A stretch of 34,791 nt of DNA from a virus (Duplodnaviria; Caudoviricetes): positions 1-34,791 of the IMG/VR virus record IMGVR_UViG_3300025018_000079, one strand, 5' to 3'. This document shows, piece after piece, positions 4,655 to 29,616 of this stretch. Under the pieces are notes generated by a model. It did not search any database, was not told where the DNA came from, and was given only the letters and a program-made list of their open reading frames with translations. Numbering within the stretch: position 1 is the stretch's first letter; the number at the start of each line of letters is the position of its first letter. Position numbers and translations under genes: made by a program.

Positions 4655-5923
4655 TTACTCAACTTCGGCTTCAACCGGTCCGTCTGGCATATCCTCATCC
4701 GGATAGTCTGATTTCTTTTCCATCAGCTCCTTGATGATTTTATTGCCCAGGCTCGCCGGCAAATCCTCTAGCTTTTCAAAGCTCTGCTCGTGGAAGAATG
4801 AAACGTAGTCCAAAATTCCGCGATCTTCGGTAAGGCTCTCTTTGTCCTTAGCCAGGGAGCGAAGCAAGGTGAGCTTGTTGGCGCTGATAGTTTCTTCCGG
4901 TTCAACTGGCGCTTTAATCTCTTCCTTGGCTGGCGCTGTGGCCGCTGGCTGAGTGATTGGCTCCGTCTTAGTCTCTTTCTGTGGCTCGGGTGCTTCCGGT
5001 TCGTCCTGCGGCTTTTTAGGGCCTTGGTCGGCTATTTCTTTCTGAATTACTTTCAAGCGGTCTAGGATTTCCTTAAAGTTCTTCTCTACTAGGTCCAGCT
5101 GGGTTTGGCTTTTAACAGCTCCAACCAACTGGTCTTTAGTCCACTTGTTCACCTCGGCTCCGTAAATCTTTATCAGAGTGACCATGATCTCGTGCTTGAT
5201 TCCGTCAAAATCCGGGACACCACTTTCGCTCCATTCCTTTATTTTCTTTCCAGTATCTTCAGTGATGACGAACGGATCTTTATCGATAAACAATCGGGTT
5301 CTGTCTTTAGTGGCCGTAGCGTAGTGACCGTCGCGATCAAGGTTGAAGCTCAGGGTTACCTCGTACTCAAATCCCTCTCTCGTGATTTCTTTCATTCCGA
5401 CTTTTTTAACTTTGCGATCTTCAGTCTGGATGGTATCTGTCTTGCTTCGGCCGCAAGTGATGACGTGGCATTTTGAAGTGACTATCGCATCAAGAAATTT
5501 TTGATGGCGAGGACCGGTCTTGCTCCAGGCGGCCCAAGTATTTCCTTTGAATTGCGTGGCCGCTATCTTGTCGTTGATTTCTAGGCATCCGCCTTTTCCC
5601 TCCCATTCGTGACTGATTGAATCAATGATGATCACTTCGATTCCAGCATCTTCAATTGCCTTTATCGCTTCGATGTATCTCTCCGGGGTGTAGCCCTCGG
5701 TTCCGGCTTCCATGGTTAGGACATTGAATTCTCCCAGGTGGCTGTATAGATCAGCGCTTCCGTTTTCGGTATCGATTATCGCGATCTTGTTCCAGTCGCC
5801 TGCGATTCCTTTAGCGGCCAATAAGGCGCTATAGGTTTTGCCTGATCCGCTCGGGCCGAATATGCCCATGCGAATTTTGGCTTGTTTTCTCTCCGCTTTG
5901 CGGAGTACTAGATTTGTTTGCAT
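4655..5923 (-). CDS. AAA_24 / Sak4-like P-loop ATPase (recombination/annealing)
   Basis: Walker A GPSGSGKT, IDTENGS, IIIDSISHEW, GFEYE, KDRT. Confidence 0.85.
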   Translation of the reverse strand: MQTNLVLRKAERKQAKIRMGIFGPSGSGKTYSALLAAKGIAGDWNKIAIIDTENGSADLYSHLGEFNVLTMEAGTEGYTPERYIEAIKAIEDAGIEVIIIDSISHEWEGKGGCLEINDKIAATQFKGNTWAAWSKTGPRHQKFLDAIVTSKCHVITCGRSKTDTIQTEDRKVKKVGMKEITREGFEYEVTLSFNLDRDGHYATATKDRTRLFIDKDPFVITEDTGKKIKEWSESGVPDFDGIKHEIMVTLIKIYGAEVNKWTKDQLVGAVKSQTQLDLVEKNFKEILDRLKVIQKEIADQGPKKPQDEPEAPEPQKETKTEPITQPAATAPAKEEIKAPVEPEETISANKLTLLRSLAKDKESLTEDRGILDYVSFFHEQSFEKLEDLPASLGNKIIKELMEKKSDYPDEDMPDGPVEAEVE

Positions 5924-6534: not shown

Positions 6535-7479
6535 TCAATTCCCTTTAAAAGAGCGGTATCTAGACTCGAGCTCAACGTTGGTCATCATGGTATAAATTGA
6601 CGAGCTCTGCACCGATGCGTGGCCGAGAATGTTCATGACGTCTGCCGTAGATCCTCCCTGGTGAATAATGTCGTGGCCCATATGATGCCGGAAGCTGTGC
6701 GCGTTCATGTATGGTATCCCTGCCCGGTTAGAATAGCGGCGGAGCAATTCCCCTACCCCTTTGATGCTTAAACGCTGACCGGCCAGGCTGGAAGTAACGC
6801 ATAAAAAAAGCGCCGCCGAATCTTTAAAGACCATTTTTCGGCCGAGCGCTTCTCGTTTAGCTAACCATATTTTTACTGCCTGGTTCGTTTCTTCTGTCCA
6901 AAAAATTTCCCGGAACGGCCGGCTACCCCGATTCTTCTCTGTCCGGATTAGAGCTTTTTTATTTTCAAGATCGATGTCTTTTACATCAAGCGCCATCAGC
7001 TCGCCGTTACGCGCCCCGGTATCCCAAAGCATTGATACAATCGCGCGGTTTCTGATGTGGCGTGGATCTTTACTGTCGGCCGGGATTGAAGCGATTAGCT
7101 TCTTAAAATTTTCCTCATCGGCCACTCGAGGGATCTTATACTGCTTCCTCGGTATTGGAATCAGCTCCTCGTTTAAAGTAGTGATGCCGCGCAGGCGCAT
7201 AAATTCAAAGAATTTACGAAGCGCCATGCAGCGAGGCAGGAGACTATTCGGGTCCCAGCCCAGCTCTATTATTCCGTTTAAGTAGTCCATGATATCGTTG
7301 ATCGTTATCCGGATGACATCCGGATTCCGGAGGAAAAGGCAAAAATTGCGCAGCTCCCTATCATAGCCCTTTACGGTATTCCCCTTAACTTTAAATTGGC
7401 GCCAATTGGAGAATTCATTGATCGCCTCTTTCATACTTACCGGCACAATAATTCGGCCGGGTTCTTGCGGTTTTAACAT
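6535..7479 (-). CDS. int: Tyrosine integrase
   Basis: SAM-like N-terminus; catalytic R (TGARNGE), K, HSFRH, LGH, Y. Confidence 0.92.
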   Translation of the reverse strand: MLKPQEPGRIIVPVSMKEAINEFSNWRQFKVKGNTVKGYDRELRNFCLFLRNPDVIRITINDIMDYLNGIIELGWDPNSLLPRCMALRKFFEFMRLRGITTLNEELIPIPRKQYKIPRVADEENFKKLIASIPADSKDPRHIRNRAIVSMLWDTGARNGELMALDVKDIDLENKKALIRTEKNRGSRPFREIFWTEETNQAVKIWLAKREALGRKMVFKDSAALFLCVTSSLAGQRLSIKGVGELLRRYSNRAGIPYMNAHSFRHHMGHDIIHQGGSTADVMNILGHASVQSSSIYTMMTNVELESRYRSFKGN

Positions 7480-10118: not shown

Positions 10119-12038
10119 TCACATTAAAAGTATCGTCAGATAAAATGTTCCCGTAATTGAAGCTGGACTTTGACCTCCGCTCGCCTTAGTCCAATCAATA
10201 TAAATGTTGTACTCGTCAAAGGTAATGACTCCAGACTGAGATAAATATGAGTTGGCGTAGCTATCTCCGGACAGCATTTTCCGCATATAAATTGATGCGG
10301 CGGAGGAATTTCCATCTCCTATTTTTGGCAAGAAAGGGTTAGAGCCAATTGAATTAACGGCAACATAAACGCATTTGTTGTTAGTGCCGTCAGAATATCC
10401 GTCTGAGGTAAGGGTAAGGCCGCCCTCTACGCTAGCAGAAGAATTAGGGATTGCATGTCTGGCCAGAACCGTAGCTAATTTAGGAATTCTCCCAAGACCA
10501 TGAGCAATAGTTTGTCGCGAGCTATTATCTGAAAATGCCCTAGTGGTTTGAAGTATTTCGGTCTTAATAGCATTGCTTAAAATTTCCCCCGGAATCTGTT
10601 TGTCACCTCCAACCCGCACAAGATCATCATCATCTACGCTTCTTGCCGTCTCCGTGGCATTAGTACCCAGGTCTAAATAGTAGCCGGTAGCTCCATCATC
10701 ATCATTGCCGCTGATATCTACTCCAGAAGATGGACTAATTAATTTCAAAATAGAATCAGCGGCTTTTACAATAAACCTACTGTCAACGTATTCGACCGTT
10801 TCGCTTCCACTGGTTAAAGATCTAATTTGAGTCTGAAGATATTGAGCTATAACCGATTTTGGCGCCACATAGGATGCATACAAAGAAAAAATCAACTCAG
10901 CCGATGATCCAGTGGACCAAGTAGAGCCGTTAAAAAGAATCTCAGCCCCACCGCTATAAACAGAACTAGACGTATAGACGTAAACGCGAATACAATTTGA
11001 GCTGTTATTCCCCGGCAGAGTAATTTTAAAGGCATATTGCTTACCAATTTCAAGCTCTATCGGTGAAGCGAACGTAAATTCTACAGCAGTCTGAGAGGTT
11101 GATAAGGTAGAAACGTCAAGCGATTTTTCTACTAGTGCCGAGCCGGTCGGATATCCTCCAGAAATTTCATAAATTCCGAGAGTCACGTTCCCGGTCGGCG
11201 ATCCATATTTGGCTATATTAACGACAAATTTTGAAAAATAATTCCGATCGACTACCGTGAATGTTTGCCCAATCGCTATACTGCTATAAACAGGCTCATA
11301 GCTTGATGATCCATTTTCCTGATAAATTGCACGAGCATCTGAATAATAAGGCAATTTTAGGTGATTATTAGAATATAAATCACCATCTATATTTATCGAG
11401 TACCTTGGGTATGAATCAGGTGCGGTCGCCATGTTGACCTTAAAATAAAGATCACCTAAATTACTCCAGCTTGATCCGCCATTACTAGAATATCGTGCTT
11501 GTCCGCCAGCATAAGAACCGCCATAATAAAAATTATAATAATGCGATCCTGTACCAGTCGGGCAACGGAATACGAAACAATACTTATTGCCATTGGTTAA
11601 TTCTAGTTTAGAAAAATTAACAAAATTCTCTCCGTTAACTATAGAAGATCCGCTTATGGTGTAGGTAGCCAGTACGGACCCGGTCGGATTATCGCTCCCA
11701 TCGGCGGCATAGATATCTAAATAAATATCCCCGGTCGGACTGCCGTATTTTGTAATATAAAAAATAGCCGATACTAAAACCGCTTTTGTCATAGTAAATG
11801 ACTGCGATATTCTCTTATTAGCATCTTGAAGATCGTAATAGGATGATGTTGAATTAACATAAATTTCTTGCGTTTCTCCAACCGGAGCAGTAATAAGCGC
11901 CCATTTAGAAAGAGGGCTGATATTTAGGCCGCCGATAAGTTTGCCTATCACGCTTGGATTTGCTGGATCAATACTATTTGCATTTTCAGCTGCCCACGGT
12001 TCATCTGGTAAAAATCCTTTATATTTTGTTAAACCCAT
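10119..12038 (-). CDS. Tail fibre / receptor-binding protein
   Basis: Follows the tail tip genes; two QSFT/QTFT..KYGSPTG..YxGG modules and IAHGLGRIP; S/T/G/Y-rich. Confidence 0.75.
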   Translation of the reverse strand: MGLTKYKGFLPDEPWAAENANSIDPANPSVIGKLIGGLNISPLSKWALITAPVGETQEIYVNSTSSYYDLQDANKRISQSFTMTKAVLVSAIFYITKYGSPTGDIYLDIYAADGSDNPTGSVLATYTISGSSIVNGENFVNFSKLELTNGNKYCFVFRCPTGTGSHYYNFYYGGSYAGGQARYSSNGGSSWSNLGDLYFKVNMATAPDSYPRYSINIDGDLYSNNHLKLPYYSDARAIYQENGSSSYEPVYSSIAIGQTFTVVDRNYFSKFVVNIAKYGSPTGNVTLGIYEISGGYPTGSALVEKSLDVSTLSTSQTAVEFTFASPIELEIGKQYAFKITLPGNNSSNCIRVYVYTSSSVYSGGAEILFNGSTWSTGSSAELIFSLYASYVAPKSVIAQYLQTQIRSLTSGSETVEYVDSRFIVKAADSILKLISPSSGVDISGNDDDGATGYYLDLGTNATETARSVDDDDLVRVGGDKQIPGEILSNAIKTEILQTTRAFSDNSSRQTIAHGLGRIPKLATVLARHAIPNSSASVEGGLTLTSDGYSDGTNNKCVYVAVNSIGSNPFLPKIGDGNSSAASIYMRKMLSGDSYANSYLSQSGVITFDEYNIYIDWTKASGGQSPASITGTFYLTILLM

Positions 12039-24529: not shown

Positions 24530-24865
24530 TTATTCGTTAATGGTGTTTTTATTAGCCTTGTTGATCAGGCTATTTCTTAAGGTGGTATACTGAGCGGCCG
24601 TATAGCTTTTGCCATTCAATACCACACCCTTTGTTTCTGTCCGGGAAAGAATCAGCTGATTAAACTTCTCTATGGCGTTATTTCTAACATCGCGCAAATC
24701 GACGTCTCCGCCGGCTTGCTTGATTTCATAGTCATAGACCTGCATCAGCGTGTTAAATTCGTCCACGGTCATGGGGGAGGGTGTAGACCCTCCCAGAATC
24801 ACCGCGCCAGCGATAACCGCTGCTCCCGCTGTTCCGACTAAAATGTTCTTGATGCTATTCTTCAC
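24530..24865 (-). CDS. Membrane-anchored hypothetical protein
   Basis: Likely GTG start at 24865; N-terminal hydrophobic helix. Confidence 0.65.
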   Translation of the reverse strand: MKNSIKNILVGTAGAAVIAGAVILGGSTPSPMTVDEFNTLMQVYDYEIKQAGGDVDLRDVRNNAIEKFNQLILSRTETKGVVLNGKSYTAAQYTTLRNSLINKANKNTINE

Positions 24866-24869
24866 AAAA

Positions 24870-25076
24870 TTAATATCCTTTAGCCCATTCTCTGATGGCG
24901 TTAGTAAACGTAGGGACCGCCCAGGCAATCAAGCCGGCCAAGACCGGATTGGAGATGTCTAAGGCCCCCAGGTAATCGCACACCGCGATACCGGCCGCCG
25001 CAGTGGCGGAGATAAGCGCTCCTTTTAAGATTTTTGTCATTGTCGCCTTGTCGAACGACCATGCTTTTTGATTCAT
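24870..25076 (-). CDS. Holin-like two-TM protein
   Basis: 68 aa, two hydrophobic helices, NAIREWAKG end. Confidence 0.6.
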   Translation of the reverse strand: MNQKAWSFDKATMTKILKGALISATAAAGIAVCDYLGALDISNPVLAGLIAWAVPTFTNAIREWAKGY

Positions 25077-25091
25077 ATGTGTAAAAATTAT

Positions 25092-25931
25092 TTATAGATA
25101 ACTTGGTACGAACATTTGATATTGGTTCCTGATGTTCAGCGGGAATGTCCTTAAATAGGTCGCGGTCGTTTCCAGAAAGACATGCCCCAGCTGTTCCTTG
25201 ATCATGTAGAGGTTGGCGCCGCGCTTCAGCAGGTTTGTTGCCAGGCTGTGGCGTAGCAGGTGCGGATAAACTCTCTTGTTTATCTTGGCCCGGCGTGATA
25301 GCACGTGGACCAATTTCCTTAAGTCGCTCGGGTTGTACTTGTGGCCGTCTCTCAAAGTCGTGAAGAGATAATCCTCTCCTTTCCTCGGAAACTGATTCAG
25401 GTAATCTATCAAGATCCGGGAACATTCCCCGGCGATATTGATTAGCCGGTCTTTCATTCCCTTGCCTTGGGTAACGCGGACCATGTTGTCGCCAAGGTTT
25501 ACGTCGTTCACGCGCAAGTTGCAAAGCTCCTTGTTCCTGATACCGGAATATGCAAGCAAAGATATTATCGATTTTTCTCTGATATTCTTGGCCGCATCGA
25601 TCAGCAGTGTCACCTCCGCTTCGCTCAAGGTGTTCTTGATCATTGTCTTTGGTTTCTTCGGCCGGCCGAGTTGCAGCGGATTGCCGATGTAATCCATGTA
25701 CCATTCCAGCGCCAGCGACGTGTTGACGATGTGGGCGTAGGAGTACTCTTTCTCGTGCATCTTCACGATGTAGTTGATTATCTGATCGTGAGTCGGCTCG
25801 TAGGTCTTGAGCGCTCTTATCAGCCGGCTGGCTGATCCTTGATACCCGGAAATCGTCACATAGCCGATTCCCTTTTTGACTAGGAGCCATTTTCCGAACT
25901 CCGTCATCCTCTCTCTTAATTCGTTTGTCAT
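25092..25931 (-). CDS. Second tyrosine recombinase (XerD-like)
   Basis: YSGIRNKE, GKGMKDR, PHLLRHS, LGH, TATY: complete catalytic set. Confidence 0.93.
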   Translation of the reverse strand: MTNELRERMTEFGKWLLVKKGIGYVTISGYQGSASRLIRALKTYEPTHDQIINYIVKMHEKEYSYAHIVNTSLALEWYMDYIGNPLQLGRPKKPKTMIKNTLSEAEVTLLIDAAKNIREKSIISLLAYSGIRNKELCNLRVNDVNLGDNMVRVTQGKGMKDRLINIAGECSRILIDYLNQFPRKGEDYLFTTLRDGHKYNPSDLRKLVHVLSRRAKINKRVYPHLLRHSLATNLLKRGANLYMIKEQLGHVFLETTATYLRTFPLNIRNQYQMFVPSYL

Positions 25932-25958
25932 ACATTTTTTTGTGCTTAGTTTATTAGC

Positions 25959-25982
25959 TGACCACTGAGACAGCAGTGGTCA
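25959..25982. promoter_or_regulatory. Hairpin in the recombinase leader
   Basis: TGACCACTG-6 nt-CAGTGGTCA perfect stem; possible -35 TTGACT at 26012-26017 on the minus strand. Confidence 0.5.
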
Positions 25983-26202
25983 AGACAACACAATGCTCCG
26001 AACACGAATTAAGTCAAGTTTTTTCAGGTTGATAAGGTACTTTTTTGCCTCTCAGGTTTCTTTCGTACGAGGCGCTAGCATTCCATCTCTTTCTATGTAA
26101 ATTTTCTAGCCGCAAATTTCGTTAATTTGGTCCGTTTCCGTTCAGTTAGTCCAGTCTGGGAGGAAAAGCGCAACACGGTGCCAAATTTTGCCAACAAAAA
26201 GC

Positions 26203-27348
26203 CTACGGACAGGTGGTCGCGGTTACCAGTCCGTTCTTAACTGTGATCGTACAAGCTCCTGAATCGTCAGCTTTCCTTACGTTTATTGTGGTTGACGTGC
26301 CAATCGTGCCATCGCTTGATTTATAGCCTGTTGCCTTGATGTTGCCGTTAACTTCCAACTTCTCTCCGGGTGCAGTGGTCCCTATCCCGACGTTGCTAGA
26401 ACCAGTAACCACAAATGAACCTTCAGTTCCTCCTCCTCGAACTTCAAGCGCTCTATCTCCTGCACTATCTCCTCCTCCAAATAAAACCATGTTATCATTT
26501 TGTAAATTCTTAGAAACAAATGAGAAAAATGCTGTACCATTATTTTCCACAATTAAACCATGCTCATTTATATCAGCTTTAATACTAGTATGAACCGCTG
26601 AAGAGATAGTATTTATAGCTGAACCAAAAAGCACATCTCCGCTGACCTCTAATTTCCGTGAAGGTGCCGTCGTCCCTATCCCTACCGAGCCAGCTGTGTA
26701 GTAAACATTGCTGCCGGATGTCGTCCATTGTGAGCTCACTTTGCTGTTAAAGGTGGACCAATCAGTGTTTGAAAGGTAGCCGGATGCTGTGCTGCTGGCC
26801 TTGGTAATGCTTAGATTATTAGCCGCCAAGACGAGCGGTGACGTGGCACTAGTGATCCGATTATCAGCTGAGCTATAAAGATTGCCTAAAGTGTCGGCCA
26901 TGATCAGCGTAGCGGTTGAGCTTGCCAGGGTGTTTATCTTGACCTGCCCGGATGAGCTAATGGATAAAGTGTCGGTTCCGCCGTTAACAAATTTAAAGGC
27001 ATCATTTCCGGTCCACATCAGGCCAGTATTGGTGTCAGAGTTGAAAGAATAAGACGGAGCCGTTGAGGTTCCGTTAGCGGCCCTTATTTGCCCGCCTACG
27101 ACCATATCGCCTGAAACCGTTCCACTTACCGCAATTGAGCCGATAGTCGCGTTAGAGGCGTCTAAATTCGTGAACCAGCCCTTTTGAATTCGGGAGGTGG
27201 CGCTGCCTAGTTCCCAGGAGCTCACAACCGGCCTAATTGAGCCGCTTACGATCTTCCAAAGGTTAGGTGCGGTTACTTGGGCCGAAGCTATGCCGCCAAT
27301 TCCTAGGGCAGCGATTATGATTGTTATTAAAAGCCATTTCTTCTTCAT
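26203..27348 (-). CDS. Secreted adhesin / fibre-like protein with two VGIGTTAP repeats
   Basis: Signal peptide (..ASA-Q), APSYSF.SDTNTG, GYLSNTDWSTFNSK, two VGIGTTAP..KLEV.G. Confidence 0.85.
   Translation of the reverse strand: MKKKWLLITIIIAALGIGGIASAQVTAPNLWKIVSGSIRPVVSSWELGSATSRIQKGWFTNLDASNATIGSIAVSGTVSGDMVVGGQIRAANGTSTAPSYSFNSDTNTGLMWTGNDAFKFVNGGTDTLSISSSGQVKINTLASSTATLIMADTLGNLYSSADNRITSATSPLVLAANNLSITKASSTASGYLSNTDWSTFNSKVSSQWTTSGSNVYYTAGSVGIGTTAPSRKLEVSGDVLFGSAINTISSAVHTSIKADINEHGLIVENNGTAFFSFVSKNLQNDNMVLFGGGDSAGDRALEVRGGGTEGSFVVTGSSNVGIGTTAPGEKLEVNGNIKATGYKSSDGTIGTSTTINVRKADDSGACTITVKNGLVTATTCP
26369..26685. repeat. 23-bp direct repeats bounding a 294-bp in-frame module
   Basis: 26369-26391 vs 26663-26685: 20/23 identical with an exact 11-bp core GTCCCTATCCC. 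Confidence 0.8.
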
Positions 27349-27352
27349 ATGC

Positions 27353-28174
27353 TTAACTTAAAGCCACGAAGCTGACTGCATCGCCAGCGTTCTCGGCATC
27401 GATAAATATGCTTGCTAAATTATTAATCTCGAGCTGATAGGTCGCACCCTGTAAAAGCGGAACGCCTATGCCGTTAGTAGCTGAGACTGCGCTATCTCCG
27501 ACCCATACTATCCCGGCGTTGTTAAACGAGGCGGATATAGTAATCTTCTTGGTCTTTGTCGTAGCTTCGCCCAGGACGACAGCTGTTCCCGGAACATCAA
27601 CCGCAACCTTTCCGGATTTAATGACGGTAGGAACGGCTGAGGTTGTGCTTCCGCCTCCGCCGCCAAATACTTGCAAACTTGCCTGTCCGACTGGTGCGCC
27701 TTTCTCATCGATATTGATCACATAAATCGGATTCTTCTTTGTGTTCTGCTTGATTGCGATACCACCCTCCCAGAGTCCGCGGAAAACTTCCGCAATCGAT
27801 TCAGCTGCTTTGGTAATCAGCTTGCTAAAAAATGGGGTATTATCTTTTTCTTGTTTCTGATTGATAATTTCTACTTTCTGAATTTCTTTCTGTTCCGGGA
27901 AATTGGTAACCTTGACCGCCTCAGGGAAGTTCGAGACCTTGACCGCCTCAGGGAAGTTCGAGACCTTGACCGCCTCAGGGAAGTTCGAGACCTTGACCTT
28001 GTCCGGAGCCGGCTCAAAGTTGGACATGTGAACCTCAGACGGAACCTGCATGATGTAATGCGGTTCCGGGCGTTTCTTCATTACCTCAATCAAGTCGTCC
28101 ATTTTTTTGGTCAACAGGTCGACTTGCTTATCCCTGATCAGTTCTTTAAGTTGTGCGATTTGCTCCTTATTCAT
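27353..28174 (-). CDS. Hypothetical virion-associated protein with VKVSNFPEA repeats
   Basis: 273 aa after the portal; beta-rich C-terminal domain (NAGIVWVG). Confidence 0.75.
   Translation of the reverse strand: MNKEQIAQLKELIRDKQVDLLTKKMDDLIEVMKKRPEPHYIMQVPSEVHMSNFEPAPDKVKVSNFPEAVKVSNFPEAVKVSNFPEAVKVTNFPEQKEIQKVEIINQKQEKDNTPFFSKLITKAAESIAEVFRGLWEGGIAIKQNTKKNPIYVINIDEKGAPVGQASLQVFGGGGGSTTSAVPTVIKSGKVAVDVPGTAVVLGEATTKTKKITISASFNNAGIVWVGDSAVSATNGIGVPLLQGATYQLEINNLASIFIDAENAGDAVSFVALS
27909..27998. repeat. 27-bp tandem repeat, 3.3 perfect copies
   Basis: Unit ACCTTGACCGCCTCAGGGAAGTTCGAG. Confidence 0.95.
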
Positions 28175-28179
28175 AAAAA

Positions 28180-29616
28180 CTATGCTCTTAAAATTTCATC
28201 GGCCAAGGCGTGCAGGTCTTTCATGTTAAAGCTCTTCTGCGCCGGCACCTGGCTGCGCTGATTCTTATCAGCAATCCGCTTTATTCTTTCAATCTCTTTA
28301 GTCGCCTGATCTTCGCTTAAGATTGCCGGCGTGCCATCCGGATTCGTATCGATACCAATATCATCAAGCGGCCGTACTCCCAAGCCATTCCAAATAAGCG
28401 GCTTATCAACGAATTCTCCGTAAGTCTTGGGGTCAAAGGTGCTAGCACCGCGCTTTTCTCTTGCTTCATTGATGGTTAAAATGCCATGCTCAACATCGGC
28501 CCGGCTTGAAGCCTCATCCCAGGCTTTGTCGTTGAAAGCCTTGGAATTGAATTCGAGCTTTATTCCTTTCACGCCTAAAACCGGCAAGACTTCGTTATTC
28601 ACGAATTCCGCCAGTAAATCTTGCAATGGGTCGATAGTTCCCTCCCAGAATTTCTGAGTCTGATTCTCGCCGTTTGAATAGTTAACGCCGTCAGTGTAGT
28701 TCAAGATGGCTTTGGGTACGCCAAAAGCCGCACAGACTTTTTCTGTGGTGAATTTGCGCATCAGATTGTACTCCATGTCCTTTTGCGCGATCTGCAATAC
28801 CTTAATTTCCTTAACGCCCTTGACCGCAATCGATTTGTTGCGGTTTTCAGGACCTTGCAGCTGGCGCTTGATGTCGTCAACGATCTTGTCCTGCTGCGCT
28901 TCGGTCAATCCCTCTTCCAAGATGTACTGCGCGCCCGGAGTAGCATCGTTAGTGAAGAATGCGTAGTTTGAAATCATGGCCGATAGGTCGGTTCTCGTCT
29001 CCCAGATTATCGGCTCAAGAGGCGATAGCCCGAACACTGGGTTATTCGGGTCATCGTGTTGTTTAAAAACAAGGACATCGCCAGGCTCGTAAACCTGGGT
29101 AATTCCTTTGACGCGCTGAATCCATTTTAAAATAGTTCCGTAGTCATCGGTCACAACCGAGAGAGTTCTCGAATCAATGACATCAAAGCCGAGGATTTTG
29201 CTGCGATCACCGGCGGAACGCAAAATCAGCAGGAAAGCTGTCCCGCTGATTTGCTGAAATTGAATAATCTTATTTTTTAAAGCTCTGAATGAGCGGCCGT
29301 AGTTTAAGGCTGTCTCTGCCACTTTCACCTGGGCCGCTTCCGGGTCCTTGTTTGGATCAGCAGCATTAACCCATAGATAGCCTTGGGAGCCGACATTTTC
29401 CTTTAATTCCCGGATACACGCAAAAACATCACCATGATTACGGAATACGGTGAAAAGCGAGTCGGGGCTGAGTTTTATTCCCATCAGACTGACTCCGTTA
29501 AGAGGTTGCCTGATTTCGCCGTAGAGGCCTTGGGAGAAACTGCCGCCATTAAAGATTTCGAATGTCTTAGCTGCGAGCCATTTCCGCAAACTAAAACGCG
29601 TTGAGATTTTTGTCAT
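28180..29616 (-). CDS. Portal protein (HK97 family)
   Basis: GLSPL, FGVP..L, NYSN.E, LTINEAR. Confidence 0.93.
   Translation of the reverse strand: MTKISTRFSLRKWLAAKTFEIFNGGSFSQGLYGEIRQPLNGVSLMGIKLSPDSLFTVFRNHGDVFACIRELKENVGSQGYLWVNAADPNKDPEAAQVKVAETALNYGRSFRALKNKIIQFQQISGTAFLLILRSAGDRSKILGFDVIDSRTLSVVTDDYGTILKWIQRVKGITQVYEPGDVLVFKQHDDPNNPVFGLSPLEPIIWETRTDLSAMISNYAFFTNDATPGAQYILEEGLTEAQQDKIVDDIKRQLQGPENRNKSIAVKGVKEIKVLQIAQKDMEYNLMRKFTTEKVCAAFGVPKAILNYTDGVNYSNGENQTQKFWEGTIDPLQDLLAEFVNNEVLPVLGVKGIKLEFNSKAFNDKAWDEASSRADVEHGILTINEAREKRGASTFDPKTYGEFVDKPLIWNGLGVRPLDDIGIDTNPDGTPAILSEDQATKEIERIKRIADKNQRSQVPAQKSFNMKDLHALADEILRA

Follow-up and report, generated by a model that had tools for sequence, protein, structure and literature searches.

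The window analyzed here, a single virus record of 34,791 bases, carries a fibre gene in which a compositionally foreign, in-frame module is exchanged among relatives at a repeated VGIGT motif with biased codons, and downstream of it a tyrosine recombinase from a clade that is linked to VGIGT genes. We propose, with confidence a little better than even, that this recombinase is a module-exchange enzyme acting on the fibre-coding DNA. Its candidacy as the enzyme that performs the swaps comes from sequence comparison and is unproven.

The window has a 94-bp terminal overlap and is therefore a circular assembly. It is a circular siphophage of 34.7 kb with genes for terminase, portal, MuF-like protein, protease, capsid, tail tube and tape measure, identified by Pfam and PHROG matches, and with an integrase gene at 6535-7479, also matched in Pfam/PHROG. 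The host is likely a Falkowbacteria-type Patescibacterium, as judged from a fibre homologue whose name derives from a MAG of this type and from recombinases 82-83% identical in Patescibacteria MAGs. Outside the fibre and recombinase locus the phage encodes a Sak4-like protein, which is the enzyme that an explanation of the swaps by homologous recombination would use. The features are collected in Table 1.

Table 1. Coordinates of the fibre and recombinase locus and of the Sak4-like gene in the window
Feature	Position	Strand	Evidence
AAA_24 / Sak4-like annealing protein	4655..5923	-	Pfam; PHROG phrog_124, E 5e-7
XerA-like tyrosine recombinase, simple (no arm-binding domain), 279 aa	25092..25931	-	PF00589, E 7e-31
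Intergenic region with conserved blocks and a hairpin ahead of the recombinase start	25932..26202	-	Sequence comparison
MAT-type (VGIGT capping-loop) fibre/adhesin, 381 aa	26203..27348	-	Bd2133 profile match; PHROG tail-fibre matches
Constant C-terminal tip, 62 aa	26203..26391	-	Decayed homologue adjoins recombinase in two Patescibacteria MAGs
Site 2, second VGIGTTAP-coding repeat, putative recombination site	26369..26391	-	Alternative modules join at 26391-26396, runs X1, X2, X5, X7
Exchangeable module, 294 bp / 98 codons	26392..26685	-	Other modules in its place in relatives
Site 1, VGIGTTAP-coding repeat, putative recombination site	26663..26685	-	Alternative modules join at 26666-26684, runs X1, X2, X4, X7, X8
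Constant N-terminal part, aa 1-221	26686..27348	-	Common to alleles P0121-P0129, P0135, L007

The fibre begins with a hydrophobic, signal-like peptide (judged by eye), and its two VGIGTTAP motifs start at 26685 and 26391, with a spacing of 294 bp and GGG ATA GGG AC in both. The first-pass annotation had described these repeats, their shared codons and a lower GC content between them, and its coordinates, repeats and GC values were all reproduced, with GC at 0.362 for 26401-26640 compared with 0.492 for 26701-26940 and 0.458 for 26221-26340. The 23-bp copies are identical at 20 of 23 bases (counted by hand), and a repeat search lengthens the pair to 47 nt at 72%; the chance that two copies share the G, I and G codons is about 3% (calculated by hand from codon counts). 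The 294-bp module is foreign by composition. GC3 is 0.15 in the module core (26392-26625) versus 0.53-0.55 in the flanks, a value below all 473 78-codon windows drawn from 22 other genes of the window (minimum 0.24).

The repeat is first of all a protein motif, the MAT capping loop. The VGIGT motif of the fibre conforms to the consensus V-G-x-G/N-x-x-x-P-x-x-x-L given for Bdellovibrio MAT fibres in the accessible text of Caulton et al. 2024 (PMC10769870), and the mosaic build is likewise shared. A profile of nine fibre alleles matched Bd2133 (8OND) at E 8e-16 and had four more matches to entries named ‘Cell wall surface anchor family protein’, while the AlphaFold monomer of the fibre was uninformative (pLDDT 34.9). 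Recombinases of the clade adjoin such fibre genes in Bdellovibrionota MAGs. In contrast to the MAT fibres as presented in the available portion of PMC10769870, the window fibre is phage-encoded, short at 381 aa and lacks an S74 domain. The same portion notes tip swapping and names no recombinase or mechanism; its supplement lists fibres from other bacteria, and subgroup HMMs are listed as a supplement of PMC8138268.

Searches with the parts of the fibre returned nine proteins for the N-terminal query and 15 for the C-terminal query. Both termini are common to nine alleles, which carry one or two differing in-frame modules between VGIG motifs, and P0124 equals P0123 with one additional module at the first motif. 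In the phage contigs L001, L007 and L008 the constant flanks and differing modules are also seen at the DNA level. Equal sizes of the longest contigs (36542, 33523, 23899 and 3068) suggest that four alleles share contigs with recombinase homologues. In the contigs of eight public runs, alternative sequence is joined at 26666-26684 and at 26391-26396, and run X1 contains the window’s own module (depth 5.8) alongside a different module joined at 26391. No 294-bp deletion joint or circle was seen in the contigs of these eight runs, an absence that shows little since contigs drop rare variants. Related loci thus have the constant flanks, variable modules and breakpoints at the motif that the first-pass annotation had anticipated; of the products that it expected in sequencing runs, the alternative modules were found in these contigs and the deletion or circle was not.

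The recombinase lies between the portal gene (28180-29616) and the MuF-like, protease and capsid genes, 271 bp downstream of the fibre gene. Residues R132, K157, H224, R227, H250 and Y259 are all present, and these six catalytic residues are invariant or nearly so among 47 homologues. The earlier description of a catalytically complete tyrosine recombinase in the head operon, downstream of an adhesin gene, is therefore correct. It had also been called unlike the integrase at 6535. That integrase lies on a long branch separate from the recombinase clade in the tree but likewise has the full R-K-H-R-H-Y set (by eye), so the distinction holds only as sequence dissimilarity. The closest solved structures are archaeal XerA (5HXY, E 1e-49), to which the profile aligns end to end. 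The score against NF040815, 176.6 bits with a cut-off of 220, indicates that the protein is not a XerA equivalog, and TIGR02249 (integron integrase) gives 90.6 bits with a cut-off of 265 and a best stretch limited to 197-260; the recombinase scores under the XerA, XerC/D and integron-integrase cut-offs alike. IntI carries an IntI-specific insertion, and the profile of the recombinase aligns to XerA without a large insertion. The two-domain, Xer-like build is shared with archaeal XerA (5HXY, 4A8E) and, according to the accessible part of PMC9703825, with Tyrovirus gp50, which also lies within a structural operon. The window recombinase differs from XerA and gp50 as a member of a separate clade, under the NF040815 cut-off, that is patchy, mobile and fibre-linked. 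Three genome samples contained it in 1/401, 5/401 and 2/401 genomes, a distribution that is not that of one vertical copy per genome.

A 344-codon ORF (24901..25935, minus strand) overlaps the entire recombinase in the -1 frame. It is stop-free in the window, L001, L002 and L003, where 7-11 stops are expected, at 81-87% DNA identity for the three pairs compared. T occupies none of 55 stop-making third positions versus 32 of 147 others (p 2e-5). The frame is closed in L214 and L134, and the ORF had no Pfam match. Overprinting of a gene is one possible explanation; another is that the open frame keeps translation of the late operon running through the recombinase.

We then asked how the recombinase is distributed relative to VGIGT genes, an association that had been proposed from the window alone. 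Alignment of the 47 homologues led to 54 viral, at least 80 genome and at least 80 metagenome loci. Loci at 43% identity or more were taken as the clade and those under 39% as the outgroup; three loci at 39-43%, all motif-free, are in neither count. Among the matches listed, a strict VGIGT motif was present within 6 kb at 41/86 clade loci versus 0/125 loci of the outgroup, which consists of Xer-like enzymes mostly from DPANN and gut Bacteroidota and is not host-matched. The motif was then relaxed, after the clade loci had been viewed, and applied to both sets, with matches under 150 aa dropped and clustering at 90%. On this basis, and again among the matches listed, 34 of 59 clade clusters had the relaxed motif within 5 kb compared with 1 of 64 outgroup clusters, and where both flanks reached at least 2 kb the listed matches gave 16/20 for the clade and 1/22 for the outgroup. 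The association is therefore present as proposed; the linkage to fibre genes is strong and the locus is real.

The clade forms one branch (SH-aLRT 98, quick tree) with members in phage contigs, Patescibacteria, Bdellovibrionota, Acidobacteriota and Bacteroidota. Its fibre genes lie upstream, downstream, divergent or convergent relative to the recombinase, and the persistence of the link in these four geometries argues against passive operon inheritance. The genome samples added five further regions, one of which repeats L145; three of the four new ones adjoin a fibre gene, one of the three neighbours being recognized solely from a motif tail at a contig end. Motif loci are sparse in Bdellovibrionota MAGs (8 in 3.7 Mb and 10 in 3.4 Mb), and the host background, worked out by hand from the MAG motif-locus densities, is about 3-4% per search window. 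Clusters without the motif make up 25 of the 59 in the clade, several of them with long flanks (L087, L101, L103, L138, L146). The link between the recombinase and VGIGT genes is one-way: of the 76 other viral VGIGT loci (L009-L084), with fetched flanks that reach 8 kb at most and are in some cases short, not one has the recombinase in those flanks, and motif DNA occurs in 45/121 genomes of the class of G001 with the recombinase in 1/401. Matched controls taken from the window phage comprise few loci, with one relative for the integrase at 6535 and three for the portal. A search of mainly freely accessible literature found no published link of a recombinase to VGIGT or MAT fibres.

This linkage bears on a reading in which the swaps do not involve the protein at all, and it instead works at the conserved intergenic region, either resolving dimers or binding DNA to regulate expression of the fibre. 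A resolvase has no need of a fibre gene next to it, and among the matches listed just 1 of the 64 outgroup clusters has such a neighbour. The kinship with archaeal XerA (5HXY) would suit such a role, as would the conserved blocks between the two genes and the Tyroviruses, whose structural operons, in the accessible part of PMC9703825, include Xer-like genes close to an 11-6-11 site; across the clade, however, the upstream regions show no common motif by eye, and we consider this function very improbable. The intergenic region had no sigma-70 promoter or terminator match and no Rfam match; the consensus fold is weak, and neither a structured RNA nor a tRNA was found. An exact scan of viral contigs with the intergenic block gave one match, the window’s near-copy.

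The codons of the motif are biased toward GGC AAC GTC GGN ATH GGR ACG ACG relative to the usage of the same genes. Across 96 linked motifs, C is favoured at three synonymous positions to the left of the GIG core (z +6.0, +5.3 and +9.9) and G at three positions to the right (z +8.5, +8.3 and +5.6), with the Pro codon unbiased. The biased arms form a partial dyad around 8 bp, C..CGTC-N8-GACG..G, and the full CGTC-N8-GACG dyad is present at 15/117 linked sites and at neither of the two window sites. Most of the same codon bias is seen in 278 unlinked viral motifs. One 20-mer, of 1,536 possible, accounts for 23 of the 150 CPR matches listed, in 11 genomes (hand count), and shared descent of homogenized repeats could be a source of the bias.

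The first-pass annotation had taken the GIGTT-coding DNA, and specifically the 11-mer GGGATAGGGAC, as the recombination site. Its interpretation is partly supported. Breakpoints fall at the motif and the motif codons are non-random, but the 11-mer itself is not supported as the site, since codons vary in L001, L007 and L008 and relatives carry GGCATTGGCAC, GGCATCGGGAC or GGGATAGGCAC at the motif. Both window sites are on one strand and are direct repeats, as had been noted in setting the locus apart from inversion systems, and no clade locus among the matches listed has motifs on both strands near the recombinase. An attI/attC-like asymmetry was also considered; the constant-flank and module arms showed no difference (Fisher p 0.28-0.65). 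Single-stranded DNA hairpins on six strands around the window and L134 sites were no better than shuffles (z -0.75 to +0.80).

Crossover positions were located by likelihood mapping, in which the pairs are not independent. Eight of nine crossovers in linked loci fall within -6 to +21 of the Val codon, and linked crossovers spread over about 25 nt; the window and L001 cross at +26 to +51, and the crossovers of 19 unlinked pairs scatter to +43. The weight within -6 to +17 is 0.86 for linked and 0.41 for unlinked crossovers, from few, non-independent pairs. The mapping lends weak support to a site and speaks against the idea that every product preserves a single, fixed cut. Nor is a single fixed crossover within the 8-bp spacer supported.

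Five pairs share a recombinase-containing block that ends at a motif (L085/L215, L088/L216, L093/L219, L153/L233 and L134/L135); in the Acidobacteria pair L153 and L233 the sequences are 97.7% identical as far as the motif and then diverge, and L233 runs past the motif into a stop, followed by a second gene. The block shared at 95% by L148 and L150 has its ends at the stop codon of the recombinase and within the fibre coiled coil, not at a motif. In Acidobacteria, the limits of shared blocks are often found at this stop codon and about 74 bp ahead of the recombinase start.

Such ends would fit a recombinase that works elsewhere, for example in moving itself and the whole fibre gene as cargo, with the modules swapped by homologous or microhomology recombination at capping-loop DNA through the Sak4-like protein or host RecA. 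Swaps at the motif occur in 15/22 detected pairs of phage loci that have no recombinase in the fetched flanks, and the codon bias is likewise present where no enzyme is nearby. The scatter of crossovers, the Sak4-like gene of the phage and the motif-free clade loci point the same way, and motif-mediated swapping is described in the accessible parts of PMC3157838 and PMC10408124. What this explanation leaves unaccounted for is the linkage in four geometries across phyla, the dyad-shaped bias of C on the left and G on the right, the G002 array, which lacks a start and has conserved non-coding flanks, and, in few and non-independent pairs, the concentration of linked crossovers within -6 to +17. 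We regard it as doubtful, though it is the strongest of the alternatives.

Decayed copies of the locus were informative. In two Patescibacteria MAGs (L134 and L135) the modules differ, the sequence to which they are joined at the motif is common to both, and the recombinase comes after it. The post-motif sequence is a stop-broken homologue of the window’s tip (z about 7). Between the two loci 86/90 non-coding bases after the motif are identical compared with 78% of recombinase third positions, and the upstream modules differ. In G002, a Falkowbacteria MAG, an intact recombinase adjoins a module array that has no start codon ahead of its first motif and is framed on either side by decayed homologues of the constant flanks. 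The array extends onto another contig as about 1.47 kb of open modules and starts at a decayed homologue of the window’s N-terminal constant end (0/500 shuffles, for spans of 120 and 300 bases). A different fibre gene of this MAG contains a module that matches one in the array at 86% identity over 236 bp. The DNA beside both sites has therefore been kept after its coding role was lost, which is how a recombination platform would be expected to look, with MAG binning as a caveat.

The L134 junction was also considered as an inovirus attL. Its ‘non-coding arm’ is the decayed homologue of the window’s tip, a second inovirus copy in G001 has no recombinase, and an exact scan of viral contigs with the junction gave 0 matches; this assignment was rejected.

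Another reading is that the enzyme serves an element as its integrase, with the motif in the role of attP and VGIGT genes of the host in that of attB. Integration would then produce a pair of chimeric fibres, both in frame, and host modules would be captured when excision ran through an adjacent motif. A module common to phage L001 and MAG locus L134 (80% over 103 bp), the AT-rich third positions of the window’s module and the rarity of the enzyme in chromosomes are all compatible with this. However, the phage has a second integrase at 6535-7479, an empty one-site allele is absent among the nine, and no host gene split by the element was found: on the 231-kb L152 contig the only two motif matches are those in the linked gene. 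The inovirus beside L134, moreover, has a second copy without the recombinase. Integration of this kind is improbable.

Returning to module exchange by the recombinase, the system would work like an integron inside a gene, yet by its features it belongs to neither the integrons nor the shufflons. In common with integrons, as described in the accessible parts of PMC8618304 and PMC9892861, a tyrosine recombinase adjoins foreign units that are arrayed in tandem and directly oriented, one more unit is gained at the first position (P0124 versus P0123) and a silent array exists (G002); the catalytic residues predicted for such an enzyme are intact. In contrast to integrons in those sources, the units here are in-frame protein modules in one CDS and the putative site is coding DNA. 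The enzyme, moreover, is XerA-like and under the integron-integrase cut-off, and no attC-like hairpin was found at the window and L134 sites.

The R64 shufflon is a further inversion system of the kind represented by Rin, Min, Gin and Cin. The Rin shufflon of Bifidobacterium prophages, in the accessible part of PMC6109161, likewise has an armless tyrosine recombinase adjoining a phage receptor-binding gene, with crossover sites within the CDS and an altered fibre as the outcome. Shufflons, as far as these sources describe them, invert a fixed local set between near-identical inverted sites, whereas the window sites are direct and degenerate and the modules appear to come from outside the locus. 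T-even gp37/gp38 and tailspike genes, in the available portions of PMC3157838 and PMC10408124, also undergo exchanges in or near conserved fibre-gene motifs. Those portions describe no dedicated site-specific recombinase, unlike the present case, in which one clade is tied to the motif genes.

The N-terminus and the tip of the fibre gene stay constant while the in-frame modules between them, joined at VGIGT motifs, are exchanged. In the mechanism that we propose, the XerA-like recombinase likely uses the coding DNA of the motif as a loose recombination site. The enzyme would bind the partial dyad, with strand exchange close to the GIG codons; modules flanked by direct repeats would be cut out, and modules drawn from other phage or host fibre genes would be inserted. 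The modules may travel as circles, and the donors probably include host fibre genes, likely those of Falkowbacteria-type Patescibacteria. The predicted outcome is an altered binding specificity of an exported trimeric fibre, and further swaps are probably added by host or phage homologous recombination. More tentatively, and at rather less than even confidence, the locus may represent a ‘domain integron’, in which a XerA-derived clade in phages and islands reads the universal capping-loop DNA of trimeric fibres as its site, moves modules among phage, Patescibacteria, Bdellovibrio and Acidobacteria, keeps silent libraries and has left the dyad codon signature on VGIGT genes generally.

If the proposal is correct, it would provide a tool for scarless in-frame domain assembly and a route of programmed protein diversification to stand beside shufflons, integrons and DGRs, one in which the site is a structural protein motif. 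For the mosaic adhesive-fibre repertoires of Bdellovibrio, CPR symbionts and their phages, whose origin is the question that it addresses, it puts forward one enzyme and one stretch of about 25 bp as the candidate recombinase and its candidate site. It would likely be a new way of diversifying adhesins, in which modules are added or removed in frame at motif coding DNA, with the recombinase as the predicted agent.

The whole XerA-like tyrosine recombinase gene, together with a 68-aa gene, is spanned by an open reading frame of 344 codons in the -1 frame. Stop-making T was found at 0 of 55 sites in this frame, compared with 32 of 147 others (p 2e-5). The avoidance is common to the phage relatives L001, L002, and L003 and is absent in locus L214 and the Patescibacteria MAG locus L134. 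The frame is a candidate for either an overprinted gene or an anti-polarity frame.

Elsewhere in the window, a second tyrosine recombinase by eye also has the full catalytic set. A 273-aa gene between portal and fibre contains three to four tandem 27-bp repeats encoding VKVSNFPEA, one copy more than in the phage relative L007. A tail-region gene has a low GC3 of 0.33 overall, with windows down to 0.24; it lacks the VGIGT motif and is possibly another mosaic receptor-binding gene.

Positions of the features in the window and in related loci
Feature	Locus	Position
-1 frame ORF	Window	24901-25935 (-)
132-aa gene	Window	24530-24928
Tandem repeats	Window	27894-27998
Second recombinase	Window	6535-7479
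Tail-region gene	Window	10119-12038
Stub and second secreted gene	L243	1259-2890
Stub and second secreted gene	L233	2059-
Stub and second secreted gene	L151	7855-
Reverse transcriptase and bAvd	L138	6025-7400
Neighbour gene	L319	807-1265
Inovirus-like element	L134	2489-10216
Inovirus-like element	G001	C24
Cys-rich gene	L315	6233-6694
Cys-rich gene	L316-L318	

In three Acidobacteria-branch loci, a signal-peptide stub runs into a stop codon at the motif, and downstream of it comes another secreted gene, which in L243 continues into the usual C-terminal part. This arrangement looks like an N-terminal replacement cassette. Beside the early-branching clade recombinase of L138, DGR-like reverse transcriptase and bAvd genes take the place of the fibre gene; a similar-looking neighbour gene in L319 had no match in a Pfam search. 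In one Patescibacteria MAG an inovirus-like element occurs twice, and its copies share 87% identity; it has a Zot-family ATPase, Rep ORF2/G2P, and a small coat-like gene, with a serine recombinase adjacent.

The Bdellovibrionota loci L315 to L318 retain, between fibre and recombinase, a small CxxCWRGxKYC-like Cys-rich gene, a candidate accessory factor; the one such gene scanned had no Pfam match. By eye, a homologue of the window's 132-aa gene also follows the L230 recombinase, an enzyme 49% identical to that of the window, and therefore the fibre, recombinase, and small membrane genes form a recurring block.
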